A stretch of 41,711 nt of DNA from a candidate division WWE3 bacterium RIFOXYB1_FULL_43_24 (GCA_001773135.1 MEVX01000012.1:1-41711), one strand, 5' to 3'; shown: positions 10,245-32,087, numbered from the stretch's first letter. Made by a program: numbers and translations. Notes: generated from the sequence alone by a model not told the origin.

Positions 10245-11843
10245 ATGTTCGGAAATTATCCTGTAAACGACGACTGGGTGTTTTTTTGGCAGGTAAAGGC
10301 TTTTTCGTTGGGAATTTTTAATATAAACGCCGAGCTTGATCCGTCTTTTATTGCGCAGGGTTTTTTGGGTTTACTGTGGTCAAAAATATTCGGGTTGGAT
10401 TACATTTCACTTCAAGTTCTGACATTTCTAATTTCGTTGGGAACAGCTTTTTTCGTATATAAAACTTTGCGGTTGCTCGGTTCCAGGAAGATTTTTGCCA
10501 TAGCGGGAGCGCTGACTTTATTTTTTAATCCATTGTTCTTTGTTTCTTCTTTCACTTTTATGACGGACAATTACCTTCTGTTTTTTCTGTCAGGTGCTAC
10601 CTACTTTTTTATCCGTTATTTCACAGCAGCTTCATACAGGAATTTAATAGCGGGGTCTTTCTTCGCTATGCTGGCAGCAGCGACGCGCCAAAATGGAACC
10701 CTTATATTTTTGCCGGCAACAGTATTGTGTGCAGTGCCTTTTCAAAAAGAAAAATTAAAGAAACTGTTAATACCGGTGTTTTTCTTCCTCCTTTCAATTG
10801 CTGTAGCATTTTTTTGGCCGAGGTTTGGGGCGAACAAAAGATTTTTGGAAACGGAGGATTTTGCCGGGCGTTTACAAACATTTTTATACGTTCCGCAATA
10901 TTTACTTATATTTCTTTCACCGGTTTTTCTTGGAATCAGAGGACAGTTGAATGGTCTTTGGAGAAAGGCTGTGGTCTTTGTAATAGCAGTTCCGGTTGCT
11001 TACCTTTTGTTTAAGACCGATCTTTTTCCAATGGGCAACATGCTTTACATAGAGGAGCTTTATGCTAAATCGGATTTCAGGGCGAATTTTAGTCTTTTCG
11101 ATAATATTTTTACGAAATTGTTTCTAGCGTTTGTTTGGGGATTGGGGTTTTCGAAAATTCTATTTTACTTATTGCCTAGATTTAGAAAAATTGCGGACAG
11201 GGGAAATTTGCGGAAACCGGAAGTATTTATTCTTTTTGCCGCAGCTTTAAATTTTGGCGTTTTACTGTTCTCTTCCGATATGTATGACCGATATTTACTT
11301 CCGGGGTTTCTATTTTCACTTTTATTTGTGTTTGGCAGACTTGGGGCCGGCTATCAACTTAATAAATATTGTGTTTATTTGTCTATTTTGCTACTTATGG
11401 TCATTTCGGTTGCTTTGCAGTGGGATTTTTCGGCGCGTAACAGGTTAATGTGGAAACAATTGGAGAATCTTAGGCAAAAGACAGGTATGAGTACACAGAT
11501 AGATTTTAACGATACATATATAAATCACATAACTGTGAGAGAGTCCGGCGATTTTACAGGACTTGAGTCAAGACGCGGTAGTTTTGACCCCCTGTGTTTT
11601 ATTCAGGATTACACGCTGGACAGCAGCTTCCCGTTTTCAAAGAAGGTAGAAAGCTTGGGGCGGGTTATTTCGTCTAAGGGTTTGGAAAATCCCAAACCTT
11701 TGGGTGTGCGAAAAAAGACACTCCCCAGAATTAAAAATAATTTGGACAGTTTGACGTTTAATGAGGAATATCCGTCTGTTTTGTACGGATTGGTAGGGAA
11801 GAAAGCCTATGTTGGAAGTTTCTGTGTTGAGAGCGCCGATTGA
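10245..11843 (+). CDS. GT-C fold membrane glycosyltransferase (ArnT/PMT-like)
   Basis: PVNDDW in first loop, FMTD, RQNG, YDRYLLP, multiple TMs; start 6 nt after TATAAT. Confidence 0.8.
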   Translation: MFGNYPVNDDWVFFWQVKAFSLGIFNINAELDPSFIAQGFLGLLWSKIFGLDYISLQVLTFLISLGTAFFVYKTLRLLGSRKIFAIAGALTLFFNPLFFVSSFTFMTDNYLLFFLSGATYFFIRYFTAASYRNLIAGSFFAMLAAATRQNGTLIFLPATVLCAVPFQKEKLKKLLIPVFFFLLSIAVAFFWPRFGANKRFLETEDFAGRLQTFLYVPQYLLIFLSPVFLGIRGQLNGLWRKAVVFVIAVPVAYLLFKTDLFPMGNMLYIEELYAKSDFRANFSLFDNIFTKLFLAFVWGLGFSKILFYLLPRFRKIADRGNLRKPEVFILFAAALNFGVLLFSSDMYDRYLLPGFLFSLLFVFGRLGAGYQLNKYCVYLSILLLMVISVALQWDFSARNRLMWKQLENLRQKTGMSTQIDFNDTYINHITVRESGDFTGLESRRGSFDPLCFIQDYTLDSSFPFSKKVESLGRVISSKGLENPKPLGVRKKTLPRIKNNLDSLTFNEEYPSVLYGLVGKKAYVGSFCVESAD

Positions 11844-11873
11844 TTATTTAAGGACGGCACTGTTCGTGGGTCA

Positions 11874-12079
11874 AATTTTCTATGGTTGGGGTGAATTCGC
11901 TTCGCGAAGCACTAACTTGAGAAGTGAGTGGAAGGACTCGGTCACCGGTTCGCGTCTGCTGACGCGCCCGTCGACCCCCTCTCGCTCGCCTTCGCTCGCT
12001 GCGAATCATTCTCGTCCTGCCACGAATAAAAAATTCCCGCCAGCTCGTCGCTTTGCTCCGAACTAACGGGAATTTTCTA
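11874..12079 (-). repeat. tRNA-Pro-linked structured unit ending in a duplicate of the tRNA 3' end
   Basis: AATTTTCTATGGTtGGGGTGA (11874-11894) repeats 12071-12091 with 1 mismatch; AGGACTCG also repeated; internal hairpins shared with the units at 26907 and 28305. Confidence 0.85.
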
Positions 12080-12156
12080 TGGTCGGGGTGACAGGACTCG
12101 AACCTGCGGCCTTTCGCACCCCATGCGAACGCGCTAGCCAACTGCGCCACACCCCG
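12080..12156 (-). tRNA. tRNA-Pro(GGG)
   Basis: CGGGGTG acceptor stem, anticodon arm TTCGC-ATGGGGT-GCGAA, GGTTCGAGTCC, encoded CCA. Confidence 0.97.
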
Positions 12157-12259
12157 ATACCTACGAGTCAAAATTTACCATTATTCAGACCAAAAATCCA
12201 ACATTTTAAGTAACGAAACCCCGCCTGTTAAAGAAAAAAGTAAAGGCGGCAAAACATCT

Positions 12260-12583
12260 TTAGGATTTGCCGCCTAGGGTTGTGCCGAAACGTTTCTTAA
12301 GTTCTTCAAACGCCTTGGGTTTATCCGAGGGAGTGTAAGTGGGATTTCTCTTTGGCTTTGCCAGCTTCGATTTTGAGAGAAATCCCCAGTTAATGACGAC
12401 GTTATCGGCTGTTAGTTTGTGCAACAAACGTGTCGGGTTCTTGTCCGAAGTGAAAGCGTAGTCCATATCGGTTAAGGAACCCGTGTCAACAGTTTTTGCA
12501 CCCCACCGCAGTATATGCTCGTAGGTCGAATTAACCTCGCTGCGGGTAGCCTGACTACTTAGTCTGACCCACCACCTGTACAT
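12260..12583 (-). CDS. hypothetical protein (possibly the 3' half of a frameshifted gene)
   Basis: 107-aa ORF overlapping the upstream ORF by 29 nt; no clear RBS of its own. Confidence 0.5.
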   Translation of the reverse strand: MYRWWVRLSSQATRSEVNSTYEHILRWGAKTVDTGSLTDMDYAFTSDKNPTRLLHKLTADNVVINWGFLSKSKLAKPKRNPTYTPSDKPKAFEELKKRFGTTLGGKS

Positions 12584-12797
12584 CGAACTTACTCCATTTC
12601 CGTCCGCCGAGGCGGTACTTTGAATTCACTAAGTTCTGGAGAGCTTTGTACACCTCTTTGGGTTTTTCAATCTCCGAGATGGTCACGTGGCCATCGTCTT
12701 CCAGAGTAACGAGCGCTTTTTTATCGACAGCCCACACATAAAGCGCAAGTCTTTTAACAACGGGAACAGACAAAGGTGGCCCTTTCATTTCAATCAT
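12555..12797 (-). CDS. hypothetical protein
   Basis: Strong RBS GAGGAGG upstream of ATG. Confidence 0.7.
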   Translation of the reverse strand: MIEMKGPPLSVPVVKRLALYVWAVDKKALVTLEDDGHVTISEIEKPKEVYKALQNLVNSKYRLGGRKWSKFDVQVVGQTK

Positions 12798-12866
12798 TTC
12801 TCCTCCTCTCTTCTATTTTTCGATTCTTGAACTCGAATACTACACGATAAAAGGTGGAAAATAAAA

Positions 12867-13514
12867 TCAGAGACTCTTTTTTAGTCTTAGCCGATATATT
12901 TGGCGCGGTCTTCCGAATGCCAGTTTTTTTGCCCAATTAGAGCCAATATCGGTGAGTTTCTCCTTAGGAAAAAGCTCACATTTTTCCAGTTTCAGGGTTC
13001 CCGAAAGCGTCTCAAATGCCCGTACGACGACATTTTCAATATATTCTTGGGTAAGTTCGGGAAGTTCCAGCCTGTCCGATTCGGAAGGCTCCAAATCGGG
13101 TGAATAACCGAGTATTAGTTCCAGCTCTCCGGAAACCTTTAACAGCGCCGTAATCTTGTTAATAGCTTCTTTAGACGGGTTCACTATCTGGCCTAAAAGC
13201 GACCCCCAGGGGAGGATAACGCTTACTTTATCTGCGATTTCCGTCATGGTAATAGGCAGATTTTCCAGCGAGGACGCTAGGAACACAGTATTTTCAAGCT
13301 TTTTTCTCACTGATTTTACAGAATATTCGCGGAGTTGCTTTTCTACCGGGTCGGCTCCTATATACAGCGTATTCGGGTCACGAAGGGCCGATTCATACAC
13401 AAATCTTCCATCACCCGTACCTAAGTCAATGTGCACAAACGCGTATTTGGCGGCCATTCCCCTTAGGTTTTCCACCGAAATATCAACTGTCTTATTACCT
13501 TTTACCGACTTCAT
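12867..13514 (-). CDS. 16S rRNA (adenine1408-N1)-methyltransferase, NpmA/KamB family
   Basis: HIDLGTGDG SAM motif, GADPV, ILPWGSLL and SNWAKKL (the two conserved Trp motifs); start taken at MKSVKG (13514). Confidence 0.85.
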   Translation of the reverse strand: MKSVKGNKTVDISVENLRGMAAKYAFVHIDLGTGDGRFVYESALRDPNTLYIGADPVEKQLREYSVKSVRKKLENTVFLASSLENLPITMTEIADKVSVILPWGSLLGQIVNPSKEAINKITALLKVSGELELILGYSPDLEPSESDRLELPELTQEYIENVVVRAFETLSGTLKLEKCELFPKEKLTDIGSNWAKKLAFGRPRQIYRLRLKKSL

Positions 13515-13536
13515 GCGGTAATGATAGAATAAGGCC
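13515..13536. promoter_or_regulatory. overlapping divergent -10 elements (bidirectional leaderless promoter)
   Basis: + strand TGaTAGAAT (13522-13530) lies 6 nt before GTG 13537; - strand TATCAT (13526..13521) lies 6 nt before ATG 13514. Confidence 0.6.
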
Positions 13537-14346
13537 GTGCATAAAGCAAAAAATAACATTTTAGCTGTTTGGCAGCCTGTCGGAATATCGACAAATCGCC
13601 TATCCCAGATAGTAGGTGAGCACTACGGCACACTTTCAAGCCACACAGGTACTTTGGATCCTATGGCGGAGGGAGTGGTAATAATTTTATTGGGGGACAC
13701 CCGTCTTAAAAAGTACGAATACGCGCACTGGCACAAAACCTACGAGTTTGAAATTATTTTCGGCATGTCCACGGATTCTTATGACGCGATGGGTTTTATT
13801 ACCGGAAAAAATAATCTCGTACCTTCTAAAAAGGAAATAGAAAAAATTCTACCCAACTTTAACGGACCCTATTCCCAAAATGTTCCAATGTACTCCGCGG
13901 TAAAAGTAAAAGGGAAAAAACTTTTCGAAAGGGCGCACGCCGGTGAGATTCTAGAAAACACCCCGATTAAAAAAGGAGAAATTTTAAGCATACGTTTAAA
14001 AAGATACAGTGAGGTTTCCCTTAGTAATTGCGTTGAAAATATCTTAAGAAGATTAAACTCAGTCAAAGGAAACTTCAGGCAGGAGCCGATTATTTCGCAA
14101 TGGAAAAAATTTGTGGACTCCGACTGCAAAGTTATAAAAGCAAAGTTCGAAGTAGAGATGTCGAAAGGATTGTACGTGCGTTCTTTATCTCAGGATATTA
14201 GCAGCAAGCTCGGTTGCCTGGGGTTTACACACTCAATTGTCAGAACAAGAAACGGTAATTATGGAAAAAAGGGGGCGGTAAACGTAGAGAAGTTATTTGG
14301 CTCCCGGCGCAATTTCGACAACCTTATTGCGGGAGTTAAATCCTGA
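13537..14346 (+). CDS. truB: tRNA pseudouridine(55) synthase TruB family
   Basis: HTGTLDPMAEGV (catalytic Asp), PMYSAVKVKGKKL, SKGLYVRSL. Confidence 0.9.
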   Translation: MHKAKNNILAVWQPVGISTNRLSQIVGEHYGTLSSHTGTLDPMAEGVVIILLGDTRLKKYEYAHWHKTYEFEIIFGMSTDSYDAMGFITGKNNLVPSKKEIEKILPNFNGPYSQNVPMYSAVKVKGKKLFERAHAGEILENTPIKKGEILSIRLKRYSEVSLSNCVENILRRLNSVKGNFRQEPIISQWKKFVDSDCKVIKAKFEVEMSKGLYVRSLSQDISSKLGCLGFTHSIVRTRNGNYGKKGAVNVEKLFGSRRNFDNLIAGVKS

Positions 14347-14520
14347 CACAATGCTTATCCTGCTCTTGGCAATTCCGAAGTAATCGGACAGGGCGTTTAC
14401 CAACTCGTTATTAGCCTCGTTTTCTTTTGCTATAGCTTTTACCGAGATCCTGAAAATTCCGTTAGATTGTTCGATTTTCGGCTCTTTAGCTCCCGGCTTT
14501 AAAAGTACATGAATTCTCAT
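14293..14520 (-). CDS. DUF167/YggU family protein
   Basis: KPGAK...ENEANNELVNALSDYF...IVSGFNSRNK. Confidence 0.88.
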   Translation of the reverse strand: MRIHVLLKPGAKEPKIEQSNGIFRISVKAIAKENEANNELVNALSDYFGIAKSRISIVSGFNSRNKVVEIAPGAK

Positions 14521-14587
14521 ACGTCTATTTATGATAATATATTTTGGCGTTCTTTTTTAGTTGCTGTTTATTTAATCGGAGGAATTT

Positions 14588-14950
14588 ATGAATTTAGACA
14601 TAGTTACAAAAAGACTTAAAATTATTTCGGATTTGCAGGAAGAGCTGAACGGTGTAAGAGCCGCCTATCAGGAATCGCTTGAAAATGACCCCGCTTACCA
14701 GGAATTGCAGGAAGAGGCGTCCAAGTTCAGAGAAAGCTCCAAAGATAAAAAAATTCAGGTAACTTCCAATCAGACAATGAAAGCCATGGCTGATCAGATG
14801 AAAGAGCTTAAAACAGAGATAACCGAGAATAAGGACATTTTGGGCCAGGAATTGGCTGATTACTACAAAGAGAGTGGTTCCATGGAAATTACTGATGAGG
14901 ATGGGAACGTAAAAAGGATTGTTTTTTCAGTGAAGCTCATAAACGGGTAA
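14588..14950 (+). CDS. hypothetical coiled-coil protein
   Basis: RBS GGAGG, acidic helical 120-aa ORF. Confidence 0.8.
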   Translation: MNLDIVTKRLKIISDLQEELNGVRAAYQESLENDPAYQELQEEASKFRESSKDKKIQVTSNQTMKAMADQMKELKTEITENKDILGQELADYYKESGSMEITDEDGNVKRIVFSVKLING

Positions 14951-15007
14951 TAGAGGGATAGCAAAACCTATTGCCAAACCGCCCTTTTATGAGAGAATAG
15001 CAATGTT

Positions 15008-15091
15008 ATGAGCATTAGAAAAAAGAAAAAAGACGCACAAAAGAATAAAATGATCCGAAAACATAGAAAGAAGTTCCGAAGGGTCAGCTAA
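15008..15091 (+). CDS. 27-aa basic peptide MSIRKKKKDAQKNKMIRKHRKKFRRVS (not in ORF track)
   Basis: Fills the intergenic gap exactly; preceded by TTGCCA-16 nt-GAGAAT with a TG extension. Confidence 0.5.
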   Translation: MSIRKKKKDAQKNKMIRKHRKKFRRVS

Positions 15092-15868
15092 TCACTTTTT
15101 TACTGTATTCCCGCCAAATCTTCTATCCCTGGTGTTGAAATCCTGTATGGCTTTCATTAACTCTTTTTCATCGAAATCCGGCATATGTACGTCGGCAAAG
15201 TATATCTCACTGTAAGCCGCCTGCCAGGGCAAAAAGCCGCTTAAACGTTTCTCCCCGGAGGTTCTTATTAAAAGGTCGGGATAAGGGTAAAGCTGTTCTT
15301 TAGTGTCAAAGTAGTTTTTAAGCATGTATAAGGGATATTTGTCGGCGTATTTGGCGGTGACGTTTTTGAGATCTTCTGTCTTAACCTCGCCGCTTTCTAC
15401 ATCTCCCACTACTTTCTCAACTACCCTTAAAATCTCGTCCTGACCGCCGTAGTCTATTGCCATATTAAGATCGTAGTTTGTGTAATTTTTTGTTTCCTCC
15501 TCAGCTTGTACCAGCTTATTTCTCAAAAATTCCGGGATTCTGTCTTTTCTTCCTAAATGATAAATTCTAACCCCGTATTTGTGGGCATCTTTTAAGTTTC
15601 CGCTAATGTAGCTCTCGAAGATTTTCATTAAGTAGGACACCTCTTCTTCGGAGCGGTTCCAGTTCTCAGTTGAAAACCCCCAAAAGGTTAGTGTGTGTAC
15701 GCCGAGTTCTCTGGACTTGTGCATGATATTCTTAACGGCCTCAAAACCCCGTCTATGGCCTTCGAATGGGGGCAACCCGTGTTCTTTAGCCCATCTGCGG
15801 TTACCGTCAGGGATTATAGCTATGTGGTTGGGAATATTAAGTTGTTGGACGGTTTCTTCTTTATTCAT
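15092..15868 (-). CDS. uppS: undecaprenyl diphosphate synthase
   Basis: HIAIIPDGNRRWA, FSTENWNR, YGGQDEI, IRTSGEKRLSGFLPWQ. Confidence 0.96.
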   Translation of the reverse strand: MNKEETVQQLNIPNHIAIIPDGNRRWAKEHGLPPFEGHRRGFEAVKNIMHKSRELGVHTLTFWGFSTENWNRSEEEVSYLMKIFESYISGNLKDAHKYGVRIYHLGRKDRIPEFLRNKLVQAEEETKNYTNYDLNMAIDYGGQDEILRVVEKVVGDVESGEVKTEDLKNVTAKYADKYPLYMLKNYFDTKEQLYPYPDLLIRTSGEKRLSGFLPWQAAYSEIYFADVHMPDFDEKELMKAIQDFNTRDRRFGGNTVKK

Positions 15869-15903
15869 ATCGGTTCAAAAGCTGCCGCAATCCGTCCATT
15901 TTA

Positions 15904-16386
15904 CTATATCAGTGCCTGTATGTCCCGTAGGACTTCTTCCGCATGTTCCGCAGGTTTTACGTTTTCGTATATTTTAGCTATTTTGCCGTCAGGGTCTATT
16001 AGGAAAGAGGTGCGGTGTGTTCCTAAGAAACTCTTACCCATGAAACTTTTTGTTTTCCAAACGCCGTAATCTTGAACCATCTTTTTGTCCGTGTCCGAGA
16101 GAAGTGTGAAGGGTAGGGAATGTTTCTCTCCGAACTTTTTGTGACTTTCCACGGAGTCGGTACTAACTCCGACTACAGCGGCTCCGGTTTTCTTAAATTC
16201 TCCCCAGGTATCTCTTATAACACAGGCTTCTGTAGTGCAGCCGGGTGTATTGTCCCTCGGGTAAAAATATATTAGAAGCCATTTTCCTGAGAACCCACTC
16301 AAAGTTTTGGTGTCACCGTTTTGATCAGGCAGGGAAAATTGTGGAGCCACATCACTAACATTTAATTTTTTATTTTCCTGAGTCAT
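15904..16386 (-). CDS. bcp: peroxiredoxin BCP/PrxQ
   Basis: YFYPRDNTPGCTTEAC. Confidence 0.95.
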   Translation of the reverse strand: MTQENKKLNVSDVAPQFSLPDQNGDTKTLSGFSGKWLLIYFYPRDNTPGCTTEACVIRDTWGEFKKTGAAVVGVSTDSVESHKKFGEKHSLPFTLLSDTDKKMVQDYGVWKTKSFMGKSFLGTHRTSFLIDPDGKIAKIYENVKPAEHAEEVLRDIQALI

Positions 16387-16406
16387 GTTTTTGCGTCTGC
16401 TGGATA

Positions 16407-16775
16407 TTAAAGATCCAGGTCATCCAAATCGGTTTCTTTGATGAGTGCGTCCATTTCTTCAATATCGATGTTGTCAATTTCTTCGATTTGTTCCTCAGAG
16501 GTTTTTTCGACTACAACTTCTTCCTTCTTTACCTCTTCTGTTACCGGCTGTCTCTGTATTTGCTGTTCGGGTGTTTTACCTTTTACAACGGTTTGATAAA
16601 TGAATAAGGCAATTGCTGCCAGTATTACCAGAAACCCGACAACTAAAAATATTTTTAGTCCCTTAGCTGTACTATATCTATTCAGTTCGTCTTCAACCGG
16701 TTTGGGTGTGTTCCAATCAGGCATTTGTTCTGCCTGTGGTGTCTGTTCTATTGGTGTACTAGTTTGTTCTTCCAT
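16407..16775 (-). CDS. single-TM acidic hypothetical protein
   Basis: RBS AGGAGG, one TM, acidic tail. Confidence 0.8.
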   Translation of the reverse strand: MEEQTSTPIEQTPQAEQMPDWNTPKPVEDELNRYSTAKGLKIFLVVGFLVILAAIALFIYQTVVKGKTPEQQIQRQPVTEEVKKEEVVVEKTSEEQIEEIDNIDIEEMDALIKETDLDDLDL

Positions 16776-16795
16776 ATTTTTCCTCCTTAATTAAA

Positions 16796-17458
16796 TTATT
16801 CCTGCTCCTCTTCGGTGTCTTCATCTTCAGTTTCTGTTTCATTTTCCTGCTGCTGGTTAAGTTTTTCTGTTCTTATTTCTTCTCTCATTGCTGCCAAGTC
16901 AATTTTTATATCTGTAAGGTAGAAGTCCTTAATCGCCACCATACTCACGTGAGTTGCTTCCAAATCTTCTCTGGCAGTTTTCAGAGCCTGTACGAAATTG
17001 ACATCTGAGGCTTCACAAGAAGCCGTTTTTAGCTCCTCGAGTTTGGCCAAGTAGTTGGCGTAATTAATTTTCGTTTCGGCGGTAAGCCTGTTTAGTTCGA
17101 CAATGTCTGCTTCCAAAGCGGCGATATTATCTCCACTGTAACCGTCCTCTTTCAACCTGTTTACGAGGTTTTCAAGTTTGTTTTCGAGACCCAGATATAC
17201 ACCCTGATGTCTTTTTTCTAGATTTTTATACTGTGTTATTTTCTCTGCAATTCTCTGAGTAACAAGCTCGCATCGTCTTTCCTGATTTTCTGCTCTGTTT
17301 AATTGCGCACGCGGGGTGTCCACTTTAGGAAGGGTTTCATTTTGAAGATTTTTACCCTCGTTAGCAGGCAGTACGTTTTGAGCTGCTGCGGTAATTAAAA
17401 AAGGAGAAATAAATATCAACGGAGCAATTAATAGCTTTGCTGAATTTTTAATTTTCAT
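16796..17458 (-). CDS. secreted coiled-coil hypothetical protein
   Basis: Signal peptide from MKIKN (17458; 6 nt after TATAAT), helical, two Cys. Confidence 0.8.
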   Translation of the reverse strand: MKIKNSAKLLIAPLIFISPFLITAAAQNVLPANEGKNLQNETLPKVDTPRAQLNRAENQERRCELVTQRIAEKITQYKNLEKRHQGVYLGLENKLENLVNRLKEDGYSGDNIAALEADIVELNRLTAETKINYANYLAKLEELKTASCEASDVNFVQALKTAREDLEATHVSMVAIKDFYLTDIKIDLAAMREEIRTEKLNQQQENETETEDEDTEEEQE

Positions 17459-17465
17459 AGGGTCA

Positions 17466-18050
17466 TTATATGGATAGTTTAGCCATTTTTGCAAACTCGG
17501 ACGCTGTCATAAACTCCGGTGTAGGGTGGTCTGTGTAGTTCGGATTCGGTTCTATATCTGCCGTTCCGTTATTTTTTACTAAGTAGAATGCCATTCCGTG
17601 GAGTTCCTCTATTTGTTCATAGTCTGCCGGCGTGTGGCCATGTGTCCAATTGTCGAGGGTAATCAAAGGCTCGTTTCCTATGTTGCTCAGGGAGTGTCCC
17701 CATTCTTGAGTTATTATCGCTTCGTCCCCCGGTAATACGCTTACGATAACGAACTGGTCTACTTTATCAGGAGTCCACGACCCGTTCTCAAAATGTTTTT
17801 TTTGTAGCAAAAGAATTCCCTTTCCATTTACTACGCGGTATGTTTCTTCATGAGAATCGTTATGGTAGTGACCGAATGTTTTAACAAATTCCTGACCGTA
17901 AGTTCCGGGAGAAAGGACGGTCATATTTTCCCATTTGTTTCCCTGCGTCACGCCTGAGAATACCCAGTAAGCGAAATCGGGCCCTTTTTCTTCGGGGCTC
18001 AACAACACAGGAGCCAATTCTTCTTTTGTCCTTACTGTCTTTATTTGCAC
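17466..18050 (-). CDS. cupin-type (archaeal-type) glucose-6-phosphate isomerase family
   Basis: KTFGHYH, ETY, G.G.LLLQ, WGH metal-binding cupin motifs. Confidence 0.85.
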   Translation of the reverse strand: MQIKTVRTKEELAPVLLSPEEKGPDFAYWVFSGVTQGNKWENMTVLSPGTYGQEFVKTFGHYHNDSHEETYRVVNGKGILLLQKKHFENGSWTPDKVDQFVIVSVLPGDEAIITQEWGHSLSNIGNEPLITLDNWTHGHTPADYEQIEELHGMAFYLVKNNGTADIEPNPNYTDHPTPEFMTASEFAKMAKLSI

Positions 18051-18059
18051 GGGCAGCGA

Positions 18060-18752
18060 TTAGTAGTTGACTATAACATTAACATTGCCGGTTGTTCTTA
18101 GCTCTTCTATATAACTAACGTATAGTTGACTCAACTTGTTCTGTTTGAGGCTTTCTTTTACCAACGAACGGCCTTGTGCGTCATCGGTAATTTCAGGAAA
18201 GCTTTCTTTATTTTCTTCGATGTAAGCAGTTATTTCTTCTTCTGTTACTGTGACTTTATCCTCCATCAACTTTTCTATGAGAGCTATATGTTTGACCTGA
18301 TCCCTAAATTCGGTTTCGGTCATCCCGTTCTGCACAAGAAATTGATCTAAAGTCTGTCCGCCCTGGAGAATTCCATCTTCGATTGTTTTGATCTTAATAT
18401 TTACTTCGTCGTCGGATACAACAATGTTTTTAGATGCGGCCTCGTTAGCGATTAACTTCTTTTCAATCAGGTTATTTAAAGCTTGTTCTCCCAGTTGGGA
18501 CTCAAGTACTTTGATGACTTCCCACCTGTATACGGGTTTTCCCTGAACTGTTGCTGCTATAAAAAGGGATTTATAGTTATAAATAAGGGCGCCAAGACCA
18601 AGAACCAAAAGAGCTATAACAAGCCCTTTATTTTTCTTTAATTCTTGTCCTATAAAATTTGTAGCCTCCCTGAATTTTACCGGCTCAGTATTACCGGACG
18701 TTGTCAGTACTTTTTCTTCTTCATGACTTTGTATTTTTTCTTTTTTATCCAT
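18060..18752 (-). CDS. SurA N-terminal / PrsA-like chaperone lacking the parvulin domain
   Basis: TM, AATVQGKPV, LIEKKLIANEA, VSDDEV, VTEEEI..Y; start at MDKKE (18752). Confidence 0.8.
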   Translation of the reverse strand: MDKKEKIQSHEEEKVLTTSGNTEPVKFREATNFIGQELKKNKGLVIALLVLGLGALIYNYKSLFIAATVQGKPVYRWEVIKVLESQLGEQALNNLIEKKLIANEAASKNIVVSDDEVNIKIKTIEDGILQGGQTLDQFLVQNGMTETEFRDQVKHIALIEKLMEDKVTVTEEEITAYIEENKESFPEITDDAQGRSLVKESLKQNKLSQLYVSYIEELRTTGNVNVIVNY

Positions 18753-18786
18753 TGCGAAAGTATAGCACAAAAATATGTGCTTATAG

Positions 18787-19245
18787 TTAATTTAATACTA
18801 CTATGCTTAGATTAAGGATTGCGGCAAAACCAACCCACACTATGTACGGAATGAGTAGCCTCGCTGCTACTGTGGATATTTTTTTGAAGCTGTACGCTGT
18901 TAATATGATTGTTATTTCAAGTAATATTATTTCGGGCAAAGCTAGGGCAGGCGCTTTCATACCGAAAAAAATTACGGACCATAGTGTGTTTAGGGTTAAC
19001 TGTATAGCGTAAAGTATTACCGCCTTTGTTTTTTCTTGCCGTGCAAACTCTTTTTTCCACACCAAATAGAGAGCTACTGCCATCAGTATATATAAAACGC
19101 TCCACATCGGACCGAAAATCCAATTCGGGGGATTAAAGAAAGGTTTATTTAAACTCGCGTACCACGTGGCGATGTTGGGTGTTGTGAAATACGAACCTAT
19201 CCCCGCAGCAGCGAAAGTAACTATTAAAGATATTACTAGTTTCAT
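18787..19245 (-). CDS. tspO: TspO/MBR tryptophan-rich sensory protein
   Basis: WYASLNKPFFNPPNWIFGPMW, LNTLWS.IFFG, PYIVWVGFA. Confidence 0.95.
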   Translation of the reverse strand: MKLVISLIVTFAAAGIGSYFTTPNIATWYASLNKPFFNPPNWIFGPMWSVLYILMAVALYLVWKKEFARQEKTKAVILYAIQLTLNTLWSVIFFGMKAPALALPEIILLEITIILTAYSFKKISTVAARLLIPYIVWVGFAAILNLSIVVLN

Positions 19246-19327
19246 TTATGTCCGTCCGATATAAATATTTTGGCCTGTATTAATTATACATTTTTGAAGC
19301 TTTGTTATCCGTTATATAATCAACAGG

Positions 19328-20068
19328 ATGAAGTTTATTAAATTTGCTCTGCCCGCCGGGATAATAATTTTATATTTATATCTGGCTTACGCGGGTTTTT
19401 ACAACACAATGAAGGAGATAAATTTGCAAAGTCCTTATAGCGAAAACCTTATGGTATTTGGAAGTTCCGACACAAGTGGCTCGGTGAAGTATGTTGCTTT
19501 AGGGGACAGTTTAAGTGCGGGAGTCGGAAGCGACAACATAAAAGAAACTATAGTTTATCAATTCGCCTTTAACCTATTTAAGAAGTACGGAAAGGTGAGC
19601 GCTCTTAACCTGGCTCTACCCGGAGGAACTACGGAAGACGTAATTAAAGATCAACTGCCGATTGCTATTAGCGAAAATCCTGCCTACGTTACACTTTTAA
19701 TTGGAATAAACGACATTCACAACAAATTTACTGACGGGCAATATACGGAAAATTATTCTCACATACTAAACGAATTGCTAACAAAAACGGATGCAAAAAT
19801 CATCGTGATAAATTTACCTTATCTGGGATCGCCTAAAGCTGTACGTTTTCCTTACAATTGGATGCTAAATTCCAGGACGAAAGAGTTTAACAGTAAGATT
19901 TACGGGTTAATTTCAGAGATTGACCACAACGACCGTATAAGACAAGTAGATTTATACGGAAAAACGTACAAAACTTTCAATAAAGACCCGAAAAATTATT
20001 CATCCGATCTTTTTCATCCATCAGGCCAAGGCTATTTGCTGTGGAGCCGGATTATAAATGAGGATTAA
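19328..20068 (+). CDS. membrane-anchored SGNH/GDSL hydrolase-family protein
   Basis: ALGDSL, IGIND, DLFHP blocks; N-terminal TM. Confidence 0.92.
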   Translation: MKFIKFALPAGIIILYLYLAYAGFYNTMKEINLQSPYSENLMVFGSSDTSGSVKYVALGDSLSAGVGSDNIKETIVYQFAFNLFKKYGKVSALNLALPGGTTEDVIKDQLPIAISENPAYVTLLIGINDIHNKFTDGQYTENYSHILNELLTKTDAKIIVINLPYLGSPKAVRFPYNWMLNSRTKEFNSKIYGLISEIDHNDRIRQVDLYGKTYKTFNKDPKNYSSDLFHPSGQGYLLWSRIINED

Positions 20069-21142: not shown

Positions 21143-21186
21143 AGCTGGCACATAACTAAGTATTAATTTACAGGTATAATAAACAT

Positions 21187-21699: not shown

Positions 21700-21703
21700 A
21701 ACA

Positions 21704-24598: not shown

Positions 24599-24619
24599 TT
24601 TTGCTTAAAGATTGCTTAT

Positions 24620-24662
24620 TTGACAAACTCCCCCCGCCCTACTATTATGAATATGTATTCAT
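24620..24662 (+). promoter_or_regulatory. sigma70 promoter with overlapping palindromic operator
   Basis: TTGACA (24620-25), 17 nt, TATTAT (24643-48); ATGAATA-TG-TATTCAT (24647-24662) covers the -10 and start site. Confidence 0.7.
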
Positions 24663-24682
24663 TATTAAATTATTGGTAGGGG

Positions 24683-24943: not shown

Positions 24944-24948
24944 AAGCG

Positions 24949-24986
24949 AATCCCCACCTGCGACTTAAAAACGCAGGCGGGGTTCA
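24949..24986 (+). other. intergenic hairpin between DUF5320 and DUF134
   Basis: CCCCaCCTGCG...CGCAGGcGGGG imperfect stem; no U-tract. Confidence 0.5.
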
Positions 24987-25015
24987 CCCGTAGTACTAAT
25001 TTTATCAGAAAGTCT

Positions 25016-26015: not shown

Positions 26016-26046
26016 TTTAAGTTTATAAGGAGGTGCAAGAAAAAAT

Positions 26047-26906: not shown

Positions 26907-27086
26907 TTGGCTGGGGGACAGGGATTCGGTCACGCATAAAATTCTGCTGAATTTTTGCTCGACCCCGCCTCGCTCGCCTTCGCTCGCTCCGGCATTCGAA
27001 TCCTCCAAATCACAACAATAAAAAATGTCCGCAAATCCTGCGGACTTCCGGCCATTTTTCATGGCTGAGCACACGGATCTAGAACC
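26907..27086 (-). repeat. tRNA-Gln 3'-end copy plus structured unit (distal copy)
   Basis: 22 bp identical to 32013-32034; 62 bp (26906-26967) identical to 28304-28365; degenerate second copy TGGCTG...GGATCTAGAACC at 27062. Confidence 0.9.
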
Positions 27087-27131: not shown

Positions 27132-28058
27132 TTAACGATTTTCCTGTAAATAGGCTTCAATTAGTTTTATATCATTCAAGTCTTTTTCTCTACCTAAAGC
27201 TTTTTTAAATAATTTTAGCGTAGACAGCTGCACATAGGGATGTCCATCAAGGATCTCAGCTTCTTTTACCTGTGTCTCAACCGGGCAAATGTTTGGATTT
27301 GTGAAATGCGATCCCTCACCTAGAATTGTTACGTTTCCTATTTGAATTGTTTCAAATCTTTCGCTTATGACAGGGTATTTGACTTTATACCTATCCCAAA
27401 CACTAGGTAAAACAATAATATCCAGATCATGTGGTTCTCTTAGGTTTCTTACGGCTAGTGGGCCGGAACCTGTTATTGCATATTCTCCAACTAATAAACC
27501 AATTTGGTCTAACTCTTTGAGGAGATTAGTTAGTATCCCCTGTTTCTCCTCAATTAAAAACTCTGAAAACGTATTCGGATATGGATATTCATGGTCATTT
27601 CTATGCATAGATATAACACTTATTTCGTTATCAATTTTATGAAGAAAGTCGCACACATTTTTGTATGACCCATGATTATCGTTTTCGTTCTGAATAAATA
27701 ACATTTTATTTTTAGGAATACTTTTGAGTATCGAGTAGTGTTCGCAGTCTTCAGAGGATAGATCTTCCAGAGGTATACCGTTAAGAATTATTTTATTTGT
27801 TAATGAAGATTCTTTTTCTAACAATTTAATTGTTACATAGGTTCCAATGGATTTTGCGAGGATATTTATTTTCTGGTTTTTATATTTTTCGCTAACTCCA
27901 TCCGCGGTTTTTTCGATCCAATTTTTGGTTGCAACACCTGTTTTCCAGTGATCCCAATATATTACTTCGGAATCAACATCCGGAGAAAGTTCCTTGCTTA
28001 TATGTTCCGCCCAATCTTTATTTTTTATTGAAAATCCGGGAAGAATTAGTGTTTTCAT
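27132..28058 (-). CDS. alpha/beta-hydrolase-like domain fused to a nucleotidyltransferase-like domain
   Basis: ILPGFS, AKSIG, QNEND, DHEY, then YAITGSG...HDLDIIV...REKDLND. Confidence 0.75.
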   Translation of the reverse strand: MKTLILPGFSIKNKDWAEHISKELSPDVDSEVIYWDHWKTGVATKNWIEKTADGVSEKYKNQKINILAKSIGTYVTIKLLEKESSLTNKIILNGIPLEDLSSEDCEHYSILKSIPKNKMLFIQNENDNHGSYKNVCDFLHKIDNEISVISMHRNDHEYPYPNTFSEFLIEEKQGILTNLLKELDQIGLLVGEYAITGSGPLAVRNLREPHDLDIIVLPSVWDRYKVKYPVISERFETIQIGNVTILGEGSHFTNPNICPVETQVKEAEILDGHPYVQLSTLKLFKKALGREKDLNDIKLIEAYLQENR

Positions 28059-28304: not shown

Positions 28305-28483
28305 TTGGCTGGGGGACAGGGATTCGGTCACGCATAAAATTCTGCTGAATTTTTGCTCGACCCCGGCTCGGCACCGTCGTGCCTGCGCCATTCGAATCTT
28401 TCCGCCTTCAACAAGTAATTTGTCAACCAACCCTGCGGGCTGCTTGCCAAATCACTGGCTGGCGGTTTTGCACGCTATTTGAA
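28305..28483 (-). repeat. tRNA-Gln 3'-end copy plus structured unit (proximal copy)
   Basis: 62-bp identity with 26906-26967; alternative second hairpin; second TGGCTG at 28456. Confidence 0.9.
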
Positions 28484-28506: not shown

Positions 28507-28968
28507 ATGAGTCTTACTTCAAAAGAATTGATTAATGGATTTAAGAAATCCTATTATCGTACTAAAGATGCGAAAAACTCGGAAGAAATATTAGAAGTGT
28601 ATTACTCCCTGTTCGAGACACTAAACTGGGTTGTGGCGATCGATTACAAACTATGCGCAGAAAAAAATGACAATAAATGGTTTTCAAAACTAGGTTCCGA
28701 TGGTGATTATATAAATGCGCTGAGATTTGCAAGGAACAGGACTTACCATCAGTGGTTTACTATATTTAAATTAGATCGAAATGATACTTTTCCTGCAATA
28801 TTTCCTATGCTTCTTTCTACATGGAAATGGTGCCCTTTATCAGATATACCTTCTGAAAGAGGTCAAAAAGAGGACCCAAACGATGAAAAACTCTACGTAA
28901 AACTTTTGGCAAACAGACCCGTAAAAGATGCTTTAGTGATTATTGATAAAATATTTTCTATTACCTGA
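28507..28968 (+). CDS. putative HEPN-like protein
   Basis: Helical, E in the N-terminal helix (LFETLNW), R-x4-H motif RNRTYH. Confidence 0.55.
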   Translation: MSLTSKELINGFKKSYYRTKDAKNSEEILEVYYSLFETLNWVVAIDYKLCAEKNDNKWFSKLGSDGDYINALRFARNRTYHQWFTIFKLDRNDTFPAIFPMLLSTWKWCPLSDIPSERGQKEDPNDEKLYVKLLANRPVKDALVIIDKIFSIT

Positions 28969-29041
28969 ATTATTTTAGTGGCCGTTTTGTAAGCTATTTA
29001 AACTGTTATTTTACAACGTACTGTGGTATAGAGTAATAAAG

Positions 29042-29380
29042 ATGGAGATTCATAGAAAAACAAAAGAAAGATATGGCTCTTTTTTTGAAGATAGGATTTG
29101 GCTAGCATGGGCAGAAGGCTGGTTTAAGATTCTCGAATGGTTAACCCTGATAGCTTTATTCGAGTATGTTTCAGTTACGACCGGTAGTAAAATACTAAGT
29201 TTTATAGTAACCATCTCATACACACTACTGTTTTATTATCTATATAACAAACTTTTTAATACTTGTTGGTTTAGATATAGACTGTCGAAGCTTTGGTCTA
29301 CGATCAGCTCTCTTATAATAACAGTTTCTGCATTTGCATTAGTAACAAAAATAGTAGAACAAATTACAGGAAAATATTAG
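29042..29380 (+). CDS. small 3-TM membrane protein
   Basis: Three hydrophobic segments. Confidence 0.7.
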   Translation: MEIHRKTKERYGSFFEDRIWLAWAEGWFKILEWLTLIALFEYVSVTTGSKILSFIVTISYTLLFYYLYNKLFNTCWFRYRLSKLWSTISSLIITVSAFALVTKIVEQITGKY

Positions 29381-29524
29381 TATTAGACGATAACAATAGA
29401 AACCAATTATCATTTCGCTGGGTATACGGCATAAATACTCATATGTATTTAGTAATACCAGAGCTGAAAGTTAGCGGATGTTGTTGGCACAATCTTGATT
29501 TTGAAAGACTTGACCGCATTTTTA

Positions 29525-30115
29525 TTAATAACCATTGAAAACATTTCCACAATAGGGACATTTTTCTCCAACTTTTACATTTTCGTTAATACAGTAAGGG
29601 CAAAACATAGGATTATCCTGATCTTCTATATATTCAGGTGAGGGTGAAGGAGAAGGAGATACGGAGACAGCACTTGCAAGACCCGAAGCAGTACTCACTG
29701 CAGTGCCTGCTGTCATTTGATCAATCACATTGTTAGTCACTTTTTTTAGCATCGATTTTAGATCGATAAGACCTTGTGCTTGATTAAGGGATAAAGCTTC
29801 AACCTTGGAATTAAGTTCTTTTAATAGGTCAAAATCAACATCCTTTTGAGCATACATAGCTGCTACTTTTTTATACCACCAATCTCTCATTTGCGTTATT
29901 TCTCTACGTTTTTCAGGGTTAGCACCAAACCAAGTATGGCAATTAGGACATAGCGGAGCTGCGTTATCAAATGTATCCTCTCCTTGTTCTTTTTGCGGTA
30001 TTATATGGTGCGCTTCAATTCCAATATTCTGACACCTACAACACCTGAATGCCGATTTTTCCTTAACGTTATTAATAATTGCTTCACTAAAAGCCATATA
30101 ATCGGGTTGTAGCAT
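29525..30115 (-). CDS. HNH endonuclease with C-terminal zinc ribbon
   Basis: CCRC...EAHHIIP...DNAAPLCPNCH; (SP)4 linker; CPYC...CPYC. Confidence 0.88.
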   Translation of the reverse strand: MLQPDYMAFSEAIINNVKEKSAFRCCRCQNIGIEAHHIIPQKEQGEDTFDNAAPLCPNCHTWFGANPEKRREITQMRDWWYKKVAAMYAQKDVDFDLLKELNSKVEALSLNQAQGLIDLKSMLKKVTNNVIDQMTAGTAVSTASGLASAVSVSPSPSPSPEYIEDQDNPMFCPYCINENVKVGEKCPYCGNVFNGY

Positions 30116-30783
30116 TAAGCTCTAGACCAACCCCCTTCAATAAGTTCTCTTGTTAATTTGGCTTTTTGAGGGTGTATATATAGATTTCTTATGATATCTT
30201 CAATAACATCAATACAGAGAGACAGATCATCTTTATGATGCTTTTTGATTTCATGAGTAGCTAAATTGCCAATATCTTTAACAAGCATGAGCAATACTGC
30301 ACCATCTCTTGTAATAATATTTTTATGAACCATCTCATCTATTTTTGTGTTTATCCCCTGAACCTTTATGTCTTGTTGAATTGATATTGCCTCAATAGTG
30401 GTTCGTACTCCTATTGCTGTAAGAATTAGCATCCCTGCGTTAAAGGATTTTATTGTTTCTTCATAAATTGTACGTACATCTTTAGGTATGCTGAAATAAC
30501 CGTTTACTAATTCCCTATCACTTCTAAAGGGCGTTGGATGTACACTTTCTGTGATGTCAGGATCGCCAGTTTGCGGGTCTACATCTTCACTGCTAACATA
30601 TCTGATCAATAAACAAATGTTATCACAACCTAAACATCGCAAAGTAAGAAAAGTTGTACTGTCCCATATATCACCATCATCGCTAGTTCCAAATTTTTCA
30701 TACTCATTGATTACATTGTGCCAAGTTTCTTGCTGGCAAGCTTTACACATTATTTTACTTTTATATTTTTTTGACACATTCAT
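30115..30783 (-). CDS. DUF4145 (HEPN-superfamily) protein with N-terminal Zn ribbon
   Basis: CKAC...CLGC, IPKDVRTIYEE, RTTIE, KDIGNLATH. Confidence 0.82.
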   Translation of the reverse strand: MNVSKKYKSKIMCKACQQETWHNVINEYEKFGTSDDGDIWDSTTFLTLRCLGCDNICLLIRYVSSEDVDPQTGDPDITESVHPTPFRSDRELVNGYFSIPKDVRTIYEETIKSFNAGMLILTAIGVRTTIEAISIQQDIKVQGINTKIDEMVHKNIITRDGAVLLMLVKDIGNLATHEIKKHHKDDLSLCIDVIEDIIRNLYIHPQKAKLTRELIEGGWSRA

Positions 30784-30806
30784 AGATTTGGTTCAGCCAA
30801 TATTAT

Positions 30807-31718
30807 TTAAGTTTTATCCTCTGAAATTAATTGACTATATGCGGCCTTAAATACTTGCCAGCAAATATGGGCCGTATTTTCATCGGGGTTAAATGCTTGT
30901 GCAACCTGTTCATGTGGATGAATAAAATTTCTAAAATCTCTTAGAGCATGACTAAATTTCTTCACGTCTAGCTTAAGACGCTTCGTTGAATATGAAACAT
31001 CAATCAAATCTGATAATGTCCAATCATATATCTTTTTAATATATCCGTTTTTATCTTTGGGCGCAGAGTTGTTAGTCATGAATTCTTTTTGGTTTTTTAA
31101 AGCTACTCCAAGCAATATACCTTCCAGCGTACTCCCTAACTGAAAGATAAGACTTAAATTAAGGTCACTTTCTAAGCAACGTCGCGCTTCATTAACTCTA
31201 TCTGTAAGTACCTGTGTAATAACAGAATCTAGATTTAATTTATTAATATCAATCTCATCGCTATAATCCTTTTTTAAAAACTGATTAATTTCATTATCTG
31301 AAGATGCGTTATTTGAAAGTTTATCTCCATCTATATTAATTGATTGAATTCGTTTAAGAGTAGGGGTTGCTCCAATATACTCAATTTTCATTGCTTCCAT
31401 GCCAAGTAACTCATTCATTGCTTTGTACGCCATGGCTAGAAGTTTTTGATCGCCTTTGTATTCTTTCGGGTCAACTAACCTTAGTAGCACCTTTTCGAAT
31501 TCAGTAGGTATTAGTCTGTTTAAAGTTTCTAATACCCACCATTTACGGGTAGATCCGTCATGTGCAACGTTAATTCCTATATTTTGAAAAAATCTAGTTA
31601 GATATGATGAAGATCTGTAAACTGGGTAACGTTCCTTTATATCTCCGCAAATGAAATCAGCTATTGTTTCTACAACGGCAGGGTCAGGTAATTGTCCAAA
31701 GTGTAAACTATTGTCCAC
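30807..31718 (-). CDS. AbiJ-N-terminal-like domain plus C-terminal HEPN-like domain
   Basis: ICGD...YRSSSYLTRFF...HDGSTRKWW N-domain; GSTLEGIL and LRDFRNFIHP C-domain. Confidence 0.7.
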   Translation of the reverse strand: MDNSLHFGQLPDPAVVETIADFICGDIKERYPVYRSSSYLTRFFQNIGINVAHDGSTRKWWVLETLNRLIPTEFEKVLLRLVDPKEYKGDQKLLAMAYKAMNELLGMEAMKIEYIGATPTLKRIQSINIDGDKLSNNASSDNEINQFLKKDYSDEIDINKLNLDSVITQVLTDRVNEARRCLESDLNLSLIFQLGSTLEGILLGVALKNQKEFMTNNSAPKDKNGYIKKIYDWTLSDLIDVSYSTKRLKLDVKKFSHALRDFRNFIHPHEQVAQAFNPDENTAHICWQVFKAAYSQLISEDKT

Positions 31719-32013: not shown

Positions 32014-32087
32014 TGGCTGGGGGACAGGGATTCGAACCCCAATTTTTGCATCCAGAGTGCAAAGTCCTACCATTAGACGATCCCCCA
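32014..32087 (-). tRNA. tRNA-Gln(CTG)
   Basis: TGGGGGA acceptor stem, TTGCA-CTCTGGA-TGCAA anticodon arm, GGTTCGAATCC, encoded CCA. Confidence 0.97.

Follow-up and report, generated by a model that had tools for sequence, protein, structure and literature searches.

Gene-less insertion modules with a covarying three-helix fold behind tRNA genes of a candidate division WWE3 bacterium and its relatives

It is textbook knowledge that tRNA genes serve as integration sites. For serine recombinases about 50 bp of plain duplex is normally enough, and in integron attC and CTX attP(+) it is the fold of one strand, a bulged imperfect hairpin, that defines the recombination site; integron attC also closes promoter-less cassettes stacked at one fixed site. 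The closest known relatives of the elements described here are the Dehalococcoides ssrA islands of the large serine recombinase DsiB, which insert midway within the T-loop, stack in tandem and carry at their far boundary a direct repeat of about 20 bp of the 3' end of the RNA gene (McMurdie et al. 2011, PMC3146451). In these islands the DsiB gene adjoins attL in reverse orientation, its 3' end containing the repeat, and a conserved 15-bp motif stands just upstream of each ssrA-island repeat (PMC3146451). Stacking with partial tRNAs is also described for the tycheposons of Prochlorococcus (bioRxiv 10.1101/2020.12.28.424599).

The locus analysed here lies on a 41,711-nt stretch of DNA from the candidate division WWE3 bacterium RIFOXYB1_FULL_43_24 (GCA_001773135.1, MEVX01000012.1:1-41711), which we refer to, at its full length, as the window. 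Three tRNA genes lie in the window, the Pro(GGG) and Gln(CTG) genes listed in Table 1 and a Glu(CTC) gene at 35094-35168 on the plus strand, and these three are all that pass the Rfam thresholds there. The Pro gene directly adjoins what we call the Pro unit (11874-12079), an element of 197 nt that holds no genes and is bounded by a 21-nt direct repeat, the copies of which, at 11874 and 12071, lie 197 nt apart and are 95% identical. A preliminary description of this locus, made from the sequence alone, had seen here a duplicated tRNA 3' end interrupted by hairpins, and such it is: the displaced Pro tail is split by a hairpin-forming insert of 35 nt, the final C of the P3 hairpin is at the same time tRNA position 56, and tail nt 66-76 at 11883-11894, which differ from the tRNA at one position, are followed by a repeat of the 9-nt trailer at 11874-11882. 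Inserts at position 65/66 like that of the Pro unit also occur in three tRNA-Ser units (L056, L087 and L071). The intact tRNA and displaced 3' repeat that mark Islander-type elements are both present, and an integrase gene inside the Pro unit is absent; the T-loop insertion point and the repeat of about 20 bp that mark the Dehalococcoides ssrA islands are present as well. A further mark of those islands is a large serine recombinase with Resolvase, Recombinase and zinc-ribbon domains, placed beside attL and convergent with the RNA gene; the window has none, and the recombinases of unit-bounded stretches in relatives are described below.

Table 1. Features of the Pro unit and of the tRNA-Gln cassette array, with positions counted from the first nucleotide of the window.
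Feature	Position	Strand	Basis or remarks
tRNA-Pro(GGG), intact gene	12080..12156	-	ARAGORN; Rfam tRNA, 61.7 bits; nt 56-76 are the proximal repeat copy
Pro unit, spacer	12020..12079	-	9-nt trailer TAGAAAATT, then long hairpin and T-run; read directly from the sequence
Pro unit, 5' arm ('guide')	12007..12019	-	CAGGAC, then conserved GAGAATG; alignments
Pro unit, P2 hairpin, type 1	11977..12006	-	GCGAGC-GAAG-GCGAGC, tandem G.A pairs; nearly the same in the distal Gln unit
Pro unit, P3 bulged hairpin	11940..11976	-	base GGTC/GACC, internal loop GA/GT, variable stem, AGCA loop
Displaced tRNA-Pro tail, first part, nt 56-65	11930..11940	-	CGAGTCCTTCC, against CGAGTCCTGTC in the tRNA
Pro unit, extra insert, 35 nt	11895..11929	-	two small hairpins; splits the displaced tail at position 65/66
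Displaced Pro tail, second part, and trailer repeat	11874..11894	-	nt 66-76 TCACCCCAACCA, then TAGAAAATT
Distal tRNA-Gln unit	26907..27086	-	covariance-model match, 106.6 bits
Distal Gln unit, decayed pseudo-tail	27062-27086	-	
Distal Gln unit, spacer hairpin	27006-27061	-	
Distal Gln unit, guide	26993-27005	-	
Distal Gln unit, P2 type 1	26965-26992	-	
Distal Gln unit, P3	26928-26964	-	
Distal Gln unit, Gln tail	26907-26927	-	21 nt
One-gene cassette between the two Gln units	27132..28058	-	308-aa protein
Proximal tRNA-Gln unit	28305..28483	-	covariance-model match, 92.8 bits
Proximal Gln unit, pseudo-tail	28455-28483	-	
Proximal Gln unit, spacer	28402-28454	-	
Proximal Gln unit, guide	28389-28401	-	
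Proximal Gln unit, P2 type 2	28363-28388	-	
Proximal Gln unit, P3	28326-28362	-	
Proximal Gln unit, Gln tail	28305-28325	-	
Cassette between tRNA-Gln and proximal unit	28507..31718	.	five ORFs
HNH endonuclease in five-ORF cassette	29525-30115	-	
DUF4145 protein in five-ORF cassette	30115-30783	-	
tRNA-Gln(CTG), intact, head of cassette array	32014..32087	-	ARAGORN; Rfam

Two further copies stand in an array that, read in the tRNA direction, runs from tRNA-Gln through the five-ORF cassette, the proximal unit and the one-gene cassette to the distal unit, both Gln units closing gene cassettes. Both open with 22 nt that match the tRNA-Gln(CTG) 3' end (32013-32034) exactly, and the two are 99% identical over 67 nt. 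They follow the plan of the Pro unit minus its 35-nt insert, are each preceded by a decayed pseudo-tail, and have P3 in common and P2 different. The sole Pfam match of the 308-aa cassette protein is a weak one to the serine-hydrolase family PF06821 (E = 0.0093, below the curated cutoff). A Pfam search of the Gln cassettes gave no recombinase, and none was found in or beside the Pro unit.

Neither a tRNA gene in pieces nor a catalogued RNA accounts for these units. ARAGORN and Rfam find no tRNA within the Pro unit, which rejects a broken, split or intron-bearing tRNA gene, and a split tRNA was also rejected on the ground that no 5' half lies upstream, where only the spacer or the neighbouring gene's terminator is found. 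At an Rfam E-value limit of 10 the best match of the Pro unit was ASdes, at 18.6 bits against a threshold of 40, and the Gln units returned nothing meaningful; no family, tRNA, RtT, ribozymes and guide RNAs included, matched at threshold. The spacer hairpin of the Pro unit was passed over by a terminator scan restricted to loops of at most 8 nt, a criterion that its loop exceeds.

The motif strings quoted in the preliminary description are all in place. With one mismatch allowed, GGAYTCGGTCAC occurs three times in the window (at 11934, 26922 and 28320) against a chance expectation of 0.19, a count that 0 of 100 shuffles reached, and the sequence said to be common to the Pro and distal Gln units proves to be a 20-mer at 11981 and 26969 (chance expectation 0.00). 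Between the Pro and Gln stems nearly every position differs and both still pair, just as had been claimed. Folded by itself, the Pro unit is unexceptional, with z = -1.18 for the tRNA-sense strand and z = -2.60 for the opposite strand, so that the argument for structure depends on comparing copies with one another.

For this comparison the 778-kb host genome was searched by pattern, which gave 11 copies, and then with a covariance model built from those 11, which gave 12. They lie behind Gly-CCC (two in tandem), Arg-TCG, Leu-GAG, the tmRNA, Arg-GCG, a Leu gene truncated at a contig end, Arg-CCT, Ala-GGC, Pro-GGG and Gln-CTG (two), and 11 of the 40 RNA genes of the host (39 tRNA genes and one tmRNA gene) carry a unit. 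The model also matches 22 of 41 related genomes, with 1-16 copies in each: all six of the genus and 16 of 24 other members of the family. An even sampling of the phylum, 151 genomes in all, gave matches in 8, three of them outside the class, and one out-of-class genome from a distant family holds six copies with scores of up to 98 bits. The distribution is patchy, and the copies form the single element family that had been proposed. Units on viral contigs were also considered and rejected: one strict pattern gave six stretches in IMG/VR, chance matches of which none fitted the covariance model and none had a tRNA, a negative that is soft for resting on a single strict pattern. In four groundwater DNA runs, contigs aligned to positions 11860-31859 break at the units, and depth in the unit bins is several-fold higher, as expected of a repeat. 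The joints between contig parts are short-sided and probably come from other copies. A joint linking 27071 with 28306 would bypass the one-gene cassette, with no more than 23 nt on one of its sides. We draw no conclusion from these contigs.

The full collection comprises 107 copies from 96 sequence stretches. A tRNA or tmRNA gene lies upstream on the same strand within the examined stretch in 94 of them, at a distance of no more than 70 nt in 81, of 71-300 nt in five and further away in eight, and the other 13 copies are at contig ends or behind long cassettes. The tail agrees with the upstream gene at 21 of 21 positions in 67 of the 94, at 19-20 in 15 and at fewer in 12. Identity begins at C56 in essentially all copies and runs to A76, and the host genes span 31 anticodon species plus tmRNA. 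Three expectations of the preliminary description, namely that copies would be tRNA-linked, that the tRNA-derived part would match the local tRNA and that the element adapts to different tRNA targets, are thus borne out by the wider collection. The spacers of the other copies have the architecture of the Pro spacer (A-tract, stem-loop, T-tract), and tandem copies occur at Gly and Gln.

Each module has three components: a spacer with a hairpin, an element of three helices that spans about 78 nt, and a repeat of the final 21 nt (56-76) of the tRNA or tmRNA beside it. The core is modelled as a three-way junction in which P1 would be formed by the 5' arm and tail nt 56/57-62. P2 exists as two types that can replace one another, one with conserved tandem G.A pairs, which are shuffled against the types of P3; P3 has a GGTC/GACC base, a GA/GT internal loop, a bulge, a variable stem and an AGCA loop. 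Over the 107 copies 87.6% of the pairing cells hold a pair, compared with 64.5% after column shuffling (0 of 500 shuffles as high) and 31-41% when partners are slid by 1-3 columns, and 25 of 29 pairs change on both sides, statistics that overstate independence, the alignment having been fitted to the model and the genomes being kin. The double changes involve 8 of 9 pairs in helices 2 and 3 (P2) and 13 of 14 in helix 4 (P3), where the base helix also appears as GGCC/GGCC, GGTA/TACC and GAAC/GTTC. Both the selection for structure and the covariation across copies that had been put forward from the three copies in the window are supported across the family. In 103 of 107 copies the more stable fold is that of the sense strand (mean -38.6 kcal/mol, against -31.5 kcal/mol for the antisense strand), and in P2 and P3 together G.T outnumbers A.C by 49 to 20, the corresponding counts in P1 being 15 and 22. 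Given this strand bias and the G.T excess, P2 and P3 have the look of genuine folds formed by the single sense strand. The complementarity in P1 may just as well be that of a duplex inverted repeat, two half-sites for a dimeric protein.

The 5' arm is specific to the tRNA that it follows, being the inverted complement of the end of the local T-loop and of the 3' strand of the T-stem. In the Pro unit the arm CAGGAC complements GTCCTG of tRNA-Pro; the Leu-GAG unit has GGACTTGAA for TTCAAGTCC and the Arg-CCT unit GGAATTGAA for TTCAATTCC. The helix 1 position 6/224 is Watson-Crick paired in 100 of 107 copies, with four pair types, and the neighbouring position is never unpaired. In about half of the copies the central TC of the arm is replaced by GA, leaving 44-48 of 107 cells unpaired at two positions. 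A conserved GAA in the arm complements T54-T55-C56, a triplet that is missing from the tail of the unit and present only in an intact T-loop. Neither this tRNA-specific arm nor insertion at 55/56 had figured in the preliminary description.

The modules are insertions, linked to tRNA and tmRNA genes, with their junction at T-loop position 55/56. At the tmRNA gene of the same-genus genome G003 there is no unit, and the trailer hairpin there is the sequence that in the host genome follows the displaced tail. This empty site identifies the 150 extra nucleotides in the host genome and G004 as an insertion, made up of tail, spacer, arm and core; the tmRNA genes of G001, G002 and G005 are likewise without a unit. 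For the Pro copy no clean empty site was found among four same-genus genomes: tRNA-Pro(GGG) is identical in sequence in three of them and differs at one base in the fourth, the locus carries no unit, and the downstream DNA is unrelated. Spacers of the same type stand behind different tRNAs in different genomes, and 52 of the 72 canonical cores have their nearest neighbour in sequence behind another tRNA species, which indicates movement between tRNAs or gene conversion among units.

The helices of these modules covary, the modules bound cassettes, and recombinase islands use the same site. Of 41 large serine recombinase loci, 23 have an open frame that runs into a convergent tRNA or tmRNA gene and stops 5-65 nt within its 3' part, eight have a tRNA within 1 kb and ten none in the stretch, and the 23 frames that end in tRNA tails point to integration of large serine recombinases at such tails. 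In relatives, such a recombinase is present in four of eight gene stretches bounded by units (L128, L131, L132 and L135), a fraction biased by the choice of these eight for having a distal unit; the cargo of unit-bounded stretches is mostly restriction-modification systems and accessory enzymes. Units are found both proximal to a recombinase island (L156/L178) and distal to one (L131, L132 and L135), and units and recombinase islands therefore insert independently at one site. When 17 recombinase islands were followed for up to 20 kb, a distal tail repeat was found in two, one of them coreless and one with a divergent unit; the model missed the divergent L183 unit, and negatives from this search are accordingly soft. 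The only serine recombinase of the host is a pseudogene on another contig, and its island ends in a decayed tail without a folded core. Recombinases occur in 20 of 22 genomes with units and in 11 of 19 without. The closing of cassettes and the junction common to large serine recombinase islands were further features absent from the preliminary description.

Other enzymes were weighed as partners. A dedicated tyrosine integrase was rejected because tyrosine recombinases occur in all 41 genomes, about two in essentially every one, irrespective of units. IS110 DEDD transposases, TnpB, Y1 TnpA and reverse transcriptases were set aside as well, PF01548, PF07282, PF01797 and PF00078 having 0 matches each in the host genome, which is 95% complete. 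An IntI-type integrase is absent, and R and L boxes of the attC consensus are not visible in the alignment. A unit-bounded island in genome G010 encodes a rolling-circle replication protein of the filamentous-phage type, a family present in 2 of 41 genomes.

The reading that we favour, with a probability of roughly 0.55, is that the units are gene-less insertion modules of about 145-200 bp whose targets are tRNA and tmRNA genes, at position 55/56 of the T-loop. The balance of evidence tips similarly towards the Pro unit being a partly decayed copy of this family, and the module itself is probably a mobile attachment-site module. It would insert at 55|56, where its own tail (nt 56-76) would restore the tRNA and the old tail of the gene would be pushed downstream, directly behind P3, which would end exactly at the junction; along with the tail the module would supply the terminator-like hairpin spacer and the three-helix element of about 78 nt. 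Serving as an attachment site, it would allow tandem stacking and close cassettes lined up behind the tRNA. The right half-site of the element would equal that of the target, and the rebuilt tRNA would then again be a target and the unit with its tail again a donor-type site, a regeneration in keeping with the clean empty sites and with the stacking in tandem. The inverted arm and tail may be the symmetric recognition site of a recombinase or a guide matched to the target, and it is presumably the tRNA-sense strand in which P2 and P3 fold, whether as RNA, as single-stranded DNA or as extruded DNA, joining arm and tail; by this fold the arm might be placed beside the tail, or the site might be presented in single strand.

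Modules of this kind would be non-autonomous. We suggest tentatively, at rather less than even odds, that a recombinase acting in trans moves them, with a large serine recombinase as the foremost candidate; these are favoured as the only enzymes seen physically at the T-loop junction. The link is weakened by their absence near the units of the window and their presence in 11 of the 19 unit-less genomes, and to our knowledge a folded insert of 66 nt between two half-sites has no precedent, which also counts against the favoured reading. The main point that this reading leaves unexplained is how, at each new tRNA species, a match to it arises in both tail copies and in the arm. The match might arise from transfers within one tRNA species, filtered by selection, together with gene conversion of the core, from a true 21-bp target duplication, or from guide-directed chemistry. 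It is decidedly unlikely that the three-helix element is a programmable targeting device whose arm would read, by base pairing, the T-loop of an intact tRNA gene or of the tRNA itself and so fix exactly where strand transfer occurs, at 55|56; its partner would be a serine recombinase or an RNA-catalysed reaction.

Several features of the units can be read in other ways. Because structure is conserved and sequence is not, the bulge and internal loops included, and only the sense strand folds well, the unit may be compared with folded single-stranded attachment sites such as integron attC or CTX-phage attP(+). On this account, which we consider unlikely, the arm of a circular single strand would pair with tail nt 56-62 and stack on P3 in imitation of a T-arm, a host Xer-type tyrosine recombinase or other enzyme would exchange one strand with the tRNA gene, and replication would fix the insertion. 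A circle opened at P3|56 and inserted at 55|56 gives exactly the observed order, the units do close cassette arrays, tyrosine recombinases are at hand in 41 of 41 genomes, and the G010 replication protein is a possible source of single strands. However, the tyrosine recombinases occur with and without units and thus carry no signal, the replication protein is found in only two genomes, neither an IntI-like enzyme nor attC consensus boxes were seen, and P1 lacks the G.T excess, so that a duplex inverted repeat fits it equally well. The same strand bias, with the tandem G.A pairs and conserved unpaired nucleotides, would suit a structured non-coding RNA that arises when transcription from the tRNA promoter reads through, and that is retained because it serves the cell, possibly as tRNA insulator or terminator, processing signal or decoy with a tRNA 3' tail, its spread being secondary. 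Every unit is on the strand of its tRNA, promoter-like sites near the Pro unit lie only upstream of tRNA-Pro, and a hairpin with T-run is placed behind the tRNA even where a recombinase gene would abut (L156). Yet that same hairpin and T-run, standing between tRNA and unit, should stop most transcription, distal units lie kilobases from any tRNA, and the patchy occurrence even within the genus and the clean empty sites mark the unit as dispensable, and only 11 of the 40 host tRNA and tmRNA genes have one; we give this explanation little credence.

The arm invites a further interpretation, in which it pairs with the intact T-loop, in the gene or in the tRNA, and directs strand transfer at 55|56 through a guide-reading recombinase, as bridge RNAs do, or through RNA catalysis, as in reverse splicing. 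That the arm tracks variable T-loop positions (the 100 Watson-Crick copies, the four pair types and the never-unpaired neighbour), that its GAA has a complement only in the intact target, that P3 ends exactly at the junction and that near-identical cores stand at different tRNAs with different arms would all be expected of such a guide. Against it, the central GA of about half of the copies breaks the pairing, the covariation is explained as well by an inverted repeat that a dimeric protein would bind, no ribozyme family was matched, and the host has none of the reverse transcriptase, IS110, TnpB or Y1 enzymes; we regard it as very unlikely. If, finally, the units were inert scars left by ordinary integrase integrations, with hairpins that are incidental terminators, the displaced tails, pseudo-tails and decayed copies would be as common as they are, and the damage to the Pro copy itself would be natural. 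The 78-nt core conserved between families of the phylum, the compensatory changes seen in 25 of its 29 pairs and the precision of the C56 junction across 31 anticodon species and tmRNA make this highly improbable.

The consequences of the favoured reading differ with the part that proves true. Many hairpins and partial tRNAs that follow tRNA genes in these genomes belong to such elements and are not signals for tRNA processing, and the modules would explain exchange of defence and accessory genes in very small genomes with few classical mobile elements. If the fold is needed for recombination, this would be a second case of a structure-defined attachment site after attC and CTX attP; if the partner is indeed a serine recombinase, it would mean new enzymology and possibly a retargetable insertion tool. 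Were the three-helix element a targeting device, insertion would be guide-directed and retargeted among tRNAs by a few base changes.

In the literature, surveyed mostly at abstract level, we found no structured, guide-bearing module behind tRNA genes, and as far as this goes the unit is a real, widespread and apparently unpublished variant of tRNA-targeted integration. The RtT RNA and tyrT repeats of E. coli (RF00391) are similar in being repeats behind a tRNA with copies of its 3' end, but the Pro unit is not a member, scoring 16.1 bits against a threshold of 45 (E = 1.6). With attC and CTX attP(+) the units have in common a site apparently defined by structure, bulged hairpins and the closure of cassettes; they differ from both in that each carries target-derived sequence, and from attC in the want of an IntI-type integrase and of a box consensus and in that the fixed site is the T-loop of a tRNA. 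Like Islander-type islands and tycheposons, they have an intact tRNA at one end and a displaced partial tRNA at the other, newcomers push older elements outward, and degenerate remnants accumulate. Those elements, in contrast, are kilobases long with an integrase of their own, mostly a tyrosine recombinase, and a structured, covarying attachment module is not described in the parts of these sources that were available. The Dehalococcoides ssrA islands share the T-loop insertion, the tail repeat and the tandem arrangement, and with them the habit seen here in 23 of 41 recombinase frames of ending in a tRNA tail. Unlike those islands, which use one gene, the units described here use at least 31 anticodon species and tmRNA, most are gene-less and about 150 bp long, and those of the window have no recombinase nearby. 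Where the ssrA islands have a 15-bp motif, the units have a covarying three-helix element of 78 nt with a target-complementary arm. What is new is thus a gene-less module of 150 bp that unites a covarying fold with a target-matching arm, stands at many tRNAs and closes cassettes.

The family of gene-less insertions at tRNA tails extends beyond the copies that our covariance model recovers. A divergent unit in a stretch from a relative (L183, genome G014), lying about 12.7-12.9 kb downstream of tRNA-Asn, was missed by the model. It carries a pseudo-tail, a spacer hairpin, P2-like and P3-like parts, and a GTGAC end before the tail; the family is therefore wider than the model detects. In the same stretch GTGAC also precedes a second copy of the tail, 500 nt farther. 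Parts of the unit also occur in another arrangement: behind a tRNA-Arg unit, the arm and P2 are joined with an entire Lys-type T-arm and tail (table).

The Gln units have peculiarities of their own. P3 is AT-rich in all Gln units of the genus, whereas the stems of other units are GC-rich. In the window, P3 (26928-26964 and 28326-28362) has the 5' strand GCAAAAATT, which matches exactly the 9 nt preceding the T-stem of tRNA-Gln(CTG) (32014-32087), an identity that could reflect either chance or a copying event. Decayed pseudo-tails starting with GGTTC precede distal units, both in the window (27062-27086 and 28455-28483) and in three further stretches (L052, L053 and L086). For Gln, these pseudo-tails are kept across genomes and across Gln-CTG and Gln-TTG loci, and they may be former displaced tails that now move along with the unit.

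Features in the window and in related sequence
Feature	Location	Strand	Remarks
Rearranged copy, arm and P2 with Lys-type T-arm and tail	stretch L055, 1501-1660	-	
tRNA-Pro(TGG)	C18 (source genome) 11821-11897	+	
Decayed large serine recombinase gene	C18 12487-13704	-	behind tRNA-Pro(TGG)
Degenerate tRNA-Pro(TGG) tail copy	C18 19890-19910	+	17/21; ~8 kb downstream
Filamentous-phage-type replication initiator	L133 (G010 contig 1) 470-1492	-	PF05144, E = 8.5e-15
Gln-type unit ending the island	L133 (G010 contig 1) 5731-5835	+	
NpmA-type 16S rRNA (adenine-1408-N1) methyltransferase family match	window 12867-13559	-	PF24675; 230 aa
12-nt period repeat D1, six overlapping copies, AAAG/AAGA-rich	window 39296-39391	+	

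Large serine recombinase islands also lie at tRNA tails. We examined 41 recombinase loci (L128, L131, L132 and L134-L170 of relatives, and contig C18 of the source genome), and at 23 of them the recombinase open frame extends 5-65 nt into the reverse-complemented tRNA or tmRNA 3' end, so that the attachment site encodes the enzyme's last codons. The C18 locus is a plain recombinase island: its recombinase gene has an internal stop and no clear N-terminal catalytic start, and the folded core is absent before the degenerate tail copy. The island in L133 is one that ends in a unit. Its initiator belongs to a family that 2 of 41 genomes contain, and it might supply single-stranded circles.

Two further features of the window deserve mention. 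Repeat D1 is probably a lysine-rich repeat within a coding region. The methyltransferase match is strong in the Pfam search (174 bits vs a cutoff of 60), and tRNA-Pro(GGG) lies ~700 bp downstream of the gene. Members of the NpmA-type family confer aminoglycoside resistance, and the protein encoded here may be a housekeeping relative of these resistance methyltransferases.
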